A stretch of DNA of 11,170 bases from Octopus sinensis. Lineage: Eukaryota. Numbering within the stretch: the stretch's first letter is position 1; the number at the start of each line of letters is the position of its first letter. A program made the position numbers and the translations under genes. This document shows, one piece after another, positions 2,815 to 5,626 of the stretch. Under the pieces are notes generated by a model. The model was given only the letters and a program-made list of their open reading frames with translations, was not told where the DNA came from and did no database searches. The stretch lies in NCBI RefSeq assembly GCF_006345805.1, contig NW_021827051.1, positions 1 to 11,170 of the forward strand, in the 5' to 3' direction.

Positions 2815-3186
2815 TACTCTTTACTCTTTTACTTGTTTCAGGCATGTGACTATGTCCATGCTGCAGCACCGTTTTTAGTCGAGCAAATCGACTCCAGGAC
2901 TTATTCTTTGTAAGCCTAGTACTTATACCATCGGTCACTTTTGCCGAACTGCTAAGTTACGGGGACTTAAACACACCAGCATCGGTTGTCAAGCGATGTT
3001 GGGGGGACAAACATAGACACACACAAACACACACATATATATATACGACGGGCTTCTTTCAGTTTCCGTCTACCAAATCCACTCACAAGGCTTTGGTCGT
3101 CCCGAGGCTATAGTAGAAGACACTTGCCCAAGGTGTCACACAGTGGGACTGAACCCGGAACCATGTGGTTCATAAGCAAGCTACTT
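2815..3186 (-). mobile_element. Family-B SINE, body and 3' part; its head is displaced to 5594-5626 by an insertion
   Basis: Reverse complement of 3324-3711. Homology stops abruptly at aagcaagctactt (3186) and resumes at 5594 with agctacttaccacgcagtcactcctacgcctat. Confidence 0.92.
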
Positions 3187-3323
3187 TATGCCATAAAATT
3201 TGCCTTTACGGCATTACAAAAAGTAGCTTGCGGGCTGGACAGAAACATTAATGAAAAAAAACGTCCGCCGATTTTTCGCTTCTCTAATACATTATTCTTT
3301 TTTTAAAAAATAAAATGAGGTAT

Positions 3324-3711
3324 AGGCGCAGGAGTGGCTGTGTGGTAAGTAGCTTGCTAACCAACCACATGGTTCCGGGTTCAGTCCCACTGCGTGGCAT
3401 CTTGGGCAAGTGTCTTCTGCTATAGCTCCGGGCCGACCAATGCCTTGTGAGTGGATTTGGTAGACGGAAACTGAAAGAAACCTGTCGTATATATGTATAT
3501 ATATAAGTTTGTGTGTCTGTGTTTGTCCCCCTAGCATTGCTTGACAACCGATGCTGGTGTGTTTACGTCTTCGTCACCTGGCGGTTCGGCAAATGAGACC
3601 GATAGAATAAGTACTGAGCTTACAAAGAATAAGTCCCGGGGTCGATTTGATCGACTAAAGGCGGTGCTCCAGCATGGCCGCAGTCAAATGACTGAAACAA
3701 GTAAAAGAGTA
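3324..3711 (+). mobile_element. Family-B SINE, near intact, nested in the 3' UTR of the ORF1-only element
   Basis: A box TGGCTGTGTGG at 3335-3345, B box GGTTCAGTCCC at 3378-3388, internal microsatellite, tail stem-loop cagtc-aaat-gactg followed by aaacaagtaaaagag. Confidence 0.93.
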
Positions 3712-3729
3712 TTAAACCTCTTACTTTGG

Positions 3730-3735
3730 TTTATT
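3730..3735 (-). promoter_or_regulatory. Candidate polyadenylation signal AATAAA of the ORF1-only element
   Basis: TTTATT on the + strand, about 19 nt downstream of the inferred ORF1 stop codon. Confidence 0.45.
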
Positions 3736-3753
3736 ACAAATTTTCCTTTTGTC

Positions 3754-4990
3754 TTAAAAAAGAACGCACAACAATGAGGCAATAAACCTTTTAGCCGGAC
3801 TGAGACACCAAGTCTCTTCAATCATCCCTATCAATTTTCTTGCCGCCTTAAGGCAATCTCTCAGCCGAAAGTCGGGGCACCAAAAGATATAATTGTAATC
3901 TTCCTTCGAACAGGACTCCACTATTCAAAGGAACTCTCTTTCTTTTACCACTAGCGCCGCCACCTGCGACGGCCAATGCTGCTGATCAGTACAGGCCGAG
4001 ATCATTAGGTCCTGACCATCAAGATAGCTCTCAACAGAGTTGTCAACAACCTCTCCCCTAAGATAGAATACCACATATTCTTTACTTTCACTGGGAGGGG
4101 CCACAGCTCCCTCTGTTGGTGACACGATTCAAACCGAAGAGGCCTCAGAACATTCCGACAGTACACTGCATACCTCCGGCACTGTTCCATTCTTTTTTAT
4201 CTTTGGTGCGGGAGAGGTTGGCTCCTTCGCCATAACGGCAGGAACCTCGCTTCCTCCCGCAACCCCGGGATCCCTCGGAGAGCAACCATTGTTTCTCCCC
4301 TTATTCCTTTTTCTTCCCTTTTTTCGAGCGAGGTCACACTCTCCTCCCATCTCTCCTTCCGGAGGAGGGTAGGGGTTCTTCCACAACTAACTGCTCCAGG
4401 AGCCTGATCTGGTCCTTGGGACAGTTCTTCTTAATGTGGCCGGGCTCCAGGCACTGATGACACTGGGTGAGGGCGTCCTTCAAGAATCACTGGATACCTG
4501 GACCCGGCCATCCTCAAAAAATCTGGGAACACCAGATCATCGGTTGATTGGGTCCACAGGGTCAAAACTGCCTTTGACCCCACCCAATTAGCCGCAGGCA
4601 TCATTTAACATTCAAGACCTTGGCTCCGCTGTCATCCAGACCCCGGCGGATAGTATCATCTATCCACTTGGGCTTTATTCCGGATGGCAGCTCACACATC
4701 CAAGCTCTCGTCAATTTCCTCCCATGAAATGTGGGCAGAAACAGAATTTCCTCCCCTTCCAGAGACTGGCTTGCGTTTTTGCGAGTCTGCCCCTCAGGAG
4801 TAACAAATAGCAGCCACACTGCTGCATATTTGACACCCCTTGTAATAAACTTGATGGTTGGCAGGTATTCTGCCAACTCCTTCTCAATATCTACTTGAAA
4901 GAACACAGTGATGGTGTCGAAGGTTTTGGAATATGTCCTCAACACCACCGTTCTCTCATTAAGGTCCTTTACCCACTGATTGGGGGGCAT
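3754..4990 (-). pseudogene. Disrupted ORF1p/Gag-like nucleic-acid-binding protein (~410 codons) with a CCHC zinc knuckle
   Basis: ATG at 4990 opens MPPNQWVKDLNERTVVLRTYSK...FITRGVKY...LPTFHGRKLTR. After frameshifts it reads VILEGRP, then CHQCLEPGHIKKNC (CX2CX4HX4C, 4462-4421), then the basic patch ARKKGRKRNKG. The C-terminal frame continues through an internal TGA (3925-3927) to TAA at 3754-3756. Confidence 0.8.
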
Positions 4991-5593
4991 AATTTCCCAC
5001 TCCAAGACAGTGTTTTTATTTTTTGCTATGCTTTGCAAAAAAAAAAAAAACGCAGGAAAATGTTCAACAAAAAAGTTCGAAATATTCAAATAAAAGTCCG
5101 AAGAAACACAACGAAAGAACAGAAAAACAGAGTAGAGAAAAGGACGAAGGAAGACATTTCCAGCAGGGCAACAGAATTCCGCCACTTAGATCCGCAAATA
5201 ATCCACAGGTAATCCTCCAGAATATTGCTTCACACAGCTACTCCAGTTCAATGTAGTAGCAAAAAAAAAATTCCTTCACGAATGGGTCGAATTTTTATAA
5301 ACTTTTCAAAGTTTGGTAGCGAGACACGCCAACCAAAACAAAACAATTATCATCGCTAAGTGAGTTACCGAGCGCGACTGCAGCAGACAAACGTTCGAGA
5401 CCCAGTGGGGATTTCTTATATGAAAAAAGGAAAAACAATGTCATACAAGAAATTCCCCACTAAGTCCTTAAAAAAAAAGTGCGTACCTTGCAATCACGCC
5501 TCTTCAACAGTTCTTCGATTCAAAACGGCCATCAACGCACGTCTTGACTGTTCAATCCGATAAGCAACTAACAAACACGCATGCGCGTAAGTG

Positions 5594-5626
5594 AGCTACT
5601 TACCACGCAGTCACTCCTACGCCTAT
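5594..5626 (-). mobile_element. Detached 5' head (A-box region) of the family-B SINE at 2815-3186
   Basis: The reverse complement ataggcgtaggagtgactgcgtggtaagtagct matches ataggcgcaggagtggctgtgtggtaagtagct at 3322-3354. Confidence 0.9.

Follow-up and report, generated by a model that had tools for sequence, protein, structure and literature searches.

The window, that is, the whole 11,170-nt stretch of Octopus sinensis DNA analysed, carries on its minus strand a Tx1-like retroelement with ORF1 only (Table 1). The insertion splits the head of a host SINE between its A-box-like and B-box-like parts. The SINE appears to be of tRNA type, judging from these box-like stretches and from general knowledge of such repeats; Rfam and ARAGORN returned no match on the window. 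A CCHC motif is directly visible in the window ORF1, and the two ORF1 fragments scanned against Pfam gave no match. No ORF2 similarity was found in the window element, and related full-length ORF1-only copies with both junctions measure 2.0–2.3 kb. In the family, an AATAAA signal spans the junction between element and duplication, which reads CATAAA in the window copy. Element-borne target-like 5' ends were also seen in other copies, for example L022.

Table 1. Features of the inserted element and of its host SINE in the window.
Feature	Position	Strand	Remarks
ORF1-only non-autonomous Tx1-like retroelement	3187..5593	-	~2.0 kb without the nested SINE; bounded by duplicated AAGTAGCT
3' target-site duplication, AAGTAGCT	3179..3186	-	Start of the SINE 3' half
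5' target-site duplication, AAGTAGCT	5594..5601	-	Adjoining bases CACTTAC are an element-borne target-like 5' end
Host SINE head, 5' half with A-box-like stretch	5602..5625	-	Assigned from sequence
Rest of host SINE (T-type), with B-box-like stretch	2822..3178	-	Matches the nested SINE at 87% in inverted orientation
Nested SINE, intact and younger, from the host SINE's family, inside the element 3' UTR	3324..3711	+	Displays an empty target site
Broken ORF1, gag-like, CCHC knuckle near 4480	3770..5035 (approximate)	-	59–62% identity to ORF1 of other ORF1-only copies
Antisense box GCAAGCTACT	3222..3231	-	Reverse complement of target positions 2–11; family-wide, covaries with the target variant
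3'-tail hairpin of the family, TGCC-N5-GGCA	3201..3213	-	TGCC-N4-6-GGCA in 21/26 other copies
Private extra complementarity of the window copy	3188..3221	-	Five differences from the closest relatives (by eye), each adding pairs

The target is quasi-palindromic, as at window positions 3341–3361 (its most frequent form, with TTACC, reads GGTAAG-TAGCTTG-CTTACC), so that a single endonuclease preference may be enough for both nicks. Elsewhere in the window, at 2250–2450 on the minus strand, lies a different SINE with a 3' end similar to the LINE tails described here, most closely to those of the L252–L266 and L267 families; SINE and LINE likely form a partner pair.

At the 3' junction, positions 3176–3187 (GCAAGCTACTTT) are the exact reverse complement of 3220–3231 (AAAGTAGCTTGC), as the original prediction had stated. 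This agreement exceeds chance, the longest antisense match between the last 120 nt and the flank being 11 nt (p=0.003, 300 shuffles). Likewise confirmed in the window copy was the inner stem 3188–3197/3205–3214, whose single mismatch becomes a G-U pair in the minus-strand RNA; the region 3176–3260 folds at -28.4 kcal/mol. The five private differences listed in Table 1, one of which is also present in L006, all add pairs, which suggests that the perfect stem of the window copy arose by template-switch correction. Alternative tail stems seen by eye included GGCC/GGCC and TGTC/GACA. The lack of poly(A) at the 3' end, also noted originally, is genuine but not special to this element, since the tails of the sister families sampled in this genome close with AATAAAGAAAT or something very near it, likewise with no A-tail.

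A DNA search with the 3' end of the element retrieved 30 loci, comprising the window, 26 distinct other copies and three duplicates. The 8-mer AAGCTACT is present in 25/26 other copies and the 10-nt core GCAAGCTACT in 22/26, so the antisense core is inherited; none of the 26 has the full 12-mer or the GGCAT end, the perfect stem being private to the window copy. One of two models put forward originally, in which the RNA carries a 12-nt target-complementary segment and a terminal hairpin that direct insertion into the SINE head, thus holds across the family for the antisense core and for the insertion nucleotide, and fails for the full 12-mer and the terminal hairpin (0/26). Eighteen of these other copies enter the SINE at the same base, two enter a tandem copy and six lie elsewhere; the duplications of the four resolved off-site copies also start with AAG(T/C). 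Across the genome, exact 24-nt junction patterns gave 356 and 134 matches, and a looser pattern gave 1,415, compared with 26 for a control.

The target-site duplication spans ~8–11 bp and is longer in some truncated copies. Twenty of the autonomous loci were traced to their 5' ends, and the full-length copies among them begin with target-like bases of their own, irrespective of the flanking sequence, which sets the true duplication at this length; an alternative duplication of 15 bp was rejected on the same ground. L098, considered as an off-site insertion with RNA-derived target bases, was discarded because it has a normal 5' junction and a 19-nt duplication. At several loci (L004/L080, L022, L078, L090, L212, L213, L316), members of different families share the site in tandem, and each 5' end rebuilds target-like sequence. 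The 5' junctions of L065 and L237 contain 40–100 nt of extra SINE sequence, which would reflect either an extended duplication or a jump of the polymerase to SINE RNA as template. L217 (G000:C1:114495996) is a short insertion in which the SINE 5' half adjoins an inverted copy of the element/target junction, an arrangement that could reflect twin priming on read-through RNA or a DNA-level template switch. The duplicates of L237 and L023 are discordant; these single cases, together with L217, were not counted as evidence.

The loci selected by junction comprise several ORF1-only families and one autonomous element, which carries the same antisense box and tail. Its copy L061 measures 5.45 kb and encodes a zf-CCHC ORF1 (PF00098) and an EN-RT-zf-RVT ORF2 (PF03372, PF00078, PF13966) broken by one frameshift, with L1 ORF2p/EN as the best solved relatives. 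The young autonomous family retains long open ORF2 frames of up to 1,137 aa, and the 30 best ORF2-matching loci, chosen regardless of target, all end at the same base. Among named sequences, the partner protein is closest to unannotated proteins of cephalopods (Argonauta 60%, Acanthosepion 52%). Relatives of ORF2 from other organisms range from 37 to 65%, and a metagenome search yielded 17 distant relatives (25–39%), none with a defined target. The window ORF1 is only 27% identical to that of this partner, so the window element is not a simple deletion of it.

The element likely belongs to the Tx1 clade. An ORF2 with APE-type endonuclease and reverse transcriptase is found in the partner L061 and is missing from the window copy, a CCHC ORF1 is found in the partner and as a motif in the window ORF1, and the target preference, set at more than 20% of copies in PMC4494074, extends to 30/30 partner copies and to 18/26 copies, plus the two in tandem, of the window's family. 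The window's family resembles HAL1 (half-L1) in being non-autonomous, with ORF1 only (PMC5753468), and has full-length copies with target duplications; unlike HAL1, which originates from mammalian L1, the window element is Tx1-like and site-specific and shares its tail with a Tx1-like partner, so that it works like a HAL1 and is not one. A precise 3' junction without poly(A), as in R1/R2-type elements, is present and, being shared by the sister families, is not diagnostic.

The SINE target occurs in two variants, AAGTAGCT (T-type) and AAGAAGCT (A-type). The older SINE head, AAGAAGCTTGCTTCCC, has 1,925 exact intact occurrences with a median divergence of 0.18 (13 copies), and the younger head, AAGTAGCTTGCT(T/A)ACC, has 44,575 with a median of 0.05 (31 copies), the two search patterns differing by two bases in length. 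A-type junctions account for 380 of the 1,415, and 5' and 3' duplicates nearly always agree at the variant base, which identifies it as real target. With the box left free as AGCTWC, 26–42 nt upstream of the junction, 599 genomic junctions were obtained. Counted by eye, AGCTAC stands at 99 of the first 100 of 411 T-site matches and AGCTTC at 78 of the first 100 of 188 A-site matches. Among sampled ORF1-only loci, the box/target table reads 51/1/5/28, with mismatches deliberately over-sampled and with 29 rows without the strict motif and two with another target base set aside. Box and target are concordant in 16/16 autonomous representatives. All 32 autonomous tails and 91 of 107 ORF1-only tails form a better duplex with their own target than with the swapped one, while 13 of the ORF1-only tails pair better with the other variant. 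The box is kept even though its distance from the junction varies from ~42 to 79 nt.

Box and target change together in several lineages. On the ORF1-only tree (62/114 rows long enough), built like the other without the box, five target changes and five box changes were placed, giving approximately four concordant independent pairs, none opposite and one unchanged (p=0.125). The autonomous tree (26 rows, rooted on a sister family) has A-type copies at its base and three changes each of target and box, with two concordant pairs on starred branches (p=0.5 alone); a single T clade is rejected (p-AU 4e-46). Neither tree is significant by itself. Together they hold ~6–7 concordant switches and none opposite, with a nominal p of ~0.02–0.03 if tails were unswapped between families, as such swaps could inflate the count of independent switches. 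Element ages overlap (A clades 0.032–0.069, T clades 0.018–0.077), so time alone does not explain the A/T sorting. Young A-type clades (~0.03) sit in SINEs diverged by 0.05–0.13, and T-type heads were probably already common when these clades inserted. The comparison of A- and T-type partner endonucleases rested on few, decayed A-type copies.

A T-type box occurs in 22 of the first 100 of 188 A-site rows, 15 of them from one subfamily, which is absent from the first 100 of 411 T-site rows and for whose tail (L158) the stem is not predicted. Shortened boxes (AGCTCT, AGCTAAC) were seen in other subfamilies. Members of the NA2 family use the same insertion base, in ten A-type and two T-type targets, with no such box in the last 300 nt, and none of their 12 tails pairs better with its own target. 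Since the mismatched-box subfamily and the boxless NA2 still hit the site, the box is not the sole guide; the original proposal that the tail directs insertion agrees with the covariation and is nevertheless too strong. NA2 (e.g. L134, L166) is a 1.4-kb ORF1-only family. In its tail, CATGTGTTG matches the SINE 16–25 nt past the junction in antisense, with a bulge, and possibly offers an alternative pairing.

In sister families with other targets, an antisense box match was found in 0/29 rows tested, four more rows having no tail; this exact-match test likewise gave no significant result for three A-type tails, owing to a bulged match or a decayed flank. These families target (TC)n, a putative U1 5' end, another repeat and varied sites. 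L111–L120 and L122 form a young Kibi-like sister family in (TC)n microsatellites, with 68–69% aa identity to the partner, and (TC)n insertion was seen in 11/20 loci of the sister-family sample. A related LINE, L271 (G000:C15:29050931-29054074; one copy only), lies directly before ATACTTACCTGG, which we take to be the 5' end of U1 snRNA; its relative L264 sits at another site. L272–L277 and L279 belong to a young related family with a fixed site before TGTTGATCAGTTAGCTG in a repeat, often in tandem.

We propose, with about even confidence, that the 8–11-nt antisense target copy of the tail pairs, within the RNA, with read-through target sequence, forming a stem that would be helpful and not essential. 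The observed starting point is site-specific insertion with an ~8–11-bp duplication and no poly(A), next to an EN-RT partner with the same tail and site. In the box lineage, the internal AATAAA of the sister tails is gone and the signal forms only across the junction. Polyadenylation cleavage falls 10–30 nt downstream of the signal, which implies that transcripts would read through at least 10 nt into the target SINE. Box and read-through are predicted to close a stem around the tail hairpin, with a modelled pairing probability of the box of ~1 in four of five tails, and the co-change of box and target suggests that selection keeps this stem. The endonuclease of the partner presumably picks the site, and a heritable A/T preference may be due to ORF2p or to RNA ends that are homologous to the target, as they are in R1/R2; sense homology alone would suffice to make it heritable. 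The stem, in turn, may help to fix or protect the start of reverse transcription. RNAalifold found no consensus structure on a poorly anchored alignment. In an unanchored alignment the box region ranks top among element columns (0.47 bits; next outside, 0.26), and box conservation is 0.92 versus 0.51 upstream, a value biased by anchoring on the box.

The box, being antisense, can pair only with read-through RNA or with the top strand, and a bolder reading, which we regard as doubtful, assigns it both partners in turn. The RNA would carry both target strands as a latch (box and read-through), opened on the nicked site by strand exchange, with the read-through pairing the primer (bottom) strand and the box the displaced top strand. 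It would thereby check both DNA strands and help to choose the A/T variant, and a one-base RNA change would retarget even endonuclease-less passengers between SINE subfamilies. This is compatible with the stem within the RNA and adds a role at the DNA. It is consistent with a box that spans the core duplication (~8–11 bp), the stretch that would melt between the nicks, and with endonuclease-less ORF1-only subfamilies that keep a one-base target preference at overlapping ages. However, the mismatched subfamily goes to the variant that its box does not match, NA2 needs no box, the sister families are site-specific without one, and 6/26 copies with an intact box are off target. We consider it unlikely that the box has no function at all and is an inherited ancestral inverted target duplication, sometimes brought back into agreement with the flank when synthesis switches templates within the quasi-palindrome. 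The five private changes of the window copy, all perfecting the inverted repeat, the inverted junction copy in L217 and a box that can lag behind a target switch (L235) would fit such a history, but re-matching looks rare in dead copies (1/27 in the window's family) and no converted mismatched-subfamily copy was seen among the A-site rows listed. Moreover, the box survives across lineages 0.2–0.4 apart and despite deletion of adjacent sequence, and neither tree contains an opposite-direction pair.

It is quite unlikely that the box instead pairs with another carrier of the target sequence, either SINE transcripts in trans or the RNA's own 5' end; the latter would circularise the RNA, provided that transcription begins within the SINE head. 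Full-length copies do have an element-borne target-like 5' end, and in 4/20 copies a canonical 5' duplicate accompanies a deviating 3' duplicate, a hint that the RNA 5' end includes target sequence. These four cases are, however, within reach of chance mutation, L304 keeps the variant in both duplicates, and the 3' partner is only 30–70 nt away and dominates the predicted local fold. The other model originally put forward, a one-off snap-back at the window insertion that copied the flank, can account only for the 12-mer and the terminal stem, both private to the window copy (0/26 others); with the 8-mer core in 25/26 other copies and AGCTWC at 599 junctions, it is refuted as the origin of the core. 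The stem within the RNA is thus the reading that we retain.

Site-specific Tx1 elements, including those that target transposons (PMC4494074), and ORF1-only derivatives (PMC5753468) are known. Described target-specific members of the clade are Tx1L in Tx1D, Tx1-Mar in Mariner-N4_AMi, Keno (U2) and Kibi ((TC)n), and target choice is attributed there mainly to the endonuclease (PMC4494074). The partner resembles them in its EN + RT + zf-RVT ORF2, its CCHC ORF1 and its fixed site in another repeat, and its sister family (68–69% aa) shares the (TC)n target of Kibi; unlike in the named elements, the target here is a SINE head (PMC4494074). The main text of that article contains neither "complementary" nor "stem-loop", and we found no antisense box described there. 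In R2 and SART1/R1Bm, sense 3' target homology improves priming, and it is mainly protein that holds the top strand in R2Bm (PMC10499050, PMC6795142, PMC7265360). The R2, R1Bm and SART1 segments are sense to the target, whereas the box described here is antisense (PMC10499050, PMC6795142, PMC7265360). Like the 3' stem-loops of stringent LINE/SINE pairs, the tail has a conserved hairpin with compensatory changes that is common to partner elements, but one arm of its outer stem is supplied by the insertion site and not by the element (PMC3747384). In a recent annotation of octopus repeats, 13 L1-Tx1 families are given as recently active, and the word "target" is absent from its accessible text (PMC13282606). 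The open-access literature that we searched described neither an antisense target box nor this element family, which Repbase or supplementary files could already list.

The bridge or seek RNA of IS110 elements pairs with both target strands. The likeness to the present case would be one of analogy only, if the element RNA pairs with both strands of its target; the partner encodes EN-RT and the box lies within the 3' UTR. IS110 is a bacterial recombinase with a separate guide RNA (PMC13604230) and has no homology to the window element.

LINEs are held to choose their targets mainly through the endonuclease, helped by sense 3' homology. In the present group, the 3' UTR contains an antisense target copy that follows a one-base target change across several lineages, including elements without an endonuclease, and this tracking is natural compensatory evidence for RNA pairing with the landing-site sequence. 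The combination of A/T box and A/T target offers a ready-made two-by-two comparison in a young family. These retroelements parasitise a very abundant SINE and keep pace with it as an older subfamily gives way to a younger one. If the RNA does help to choose the site, APE-type LINEs could be retargetable through RNA.
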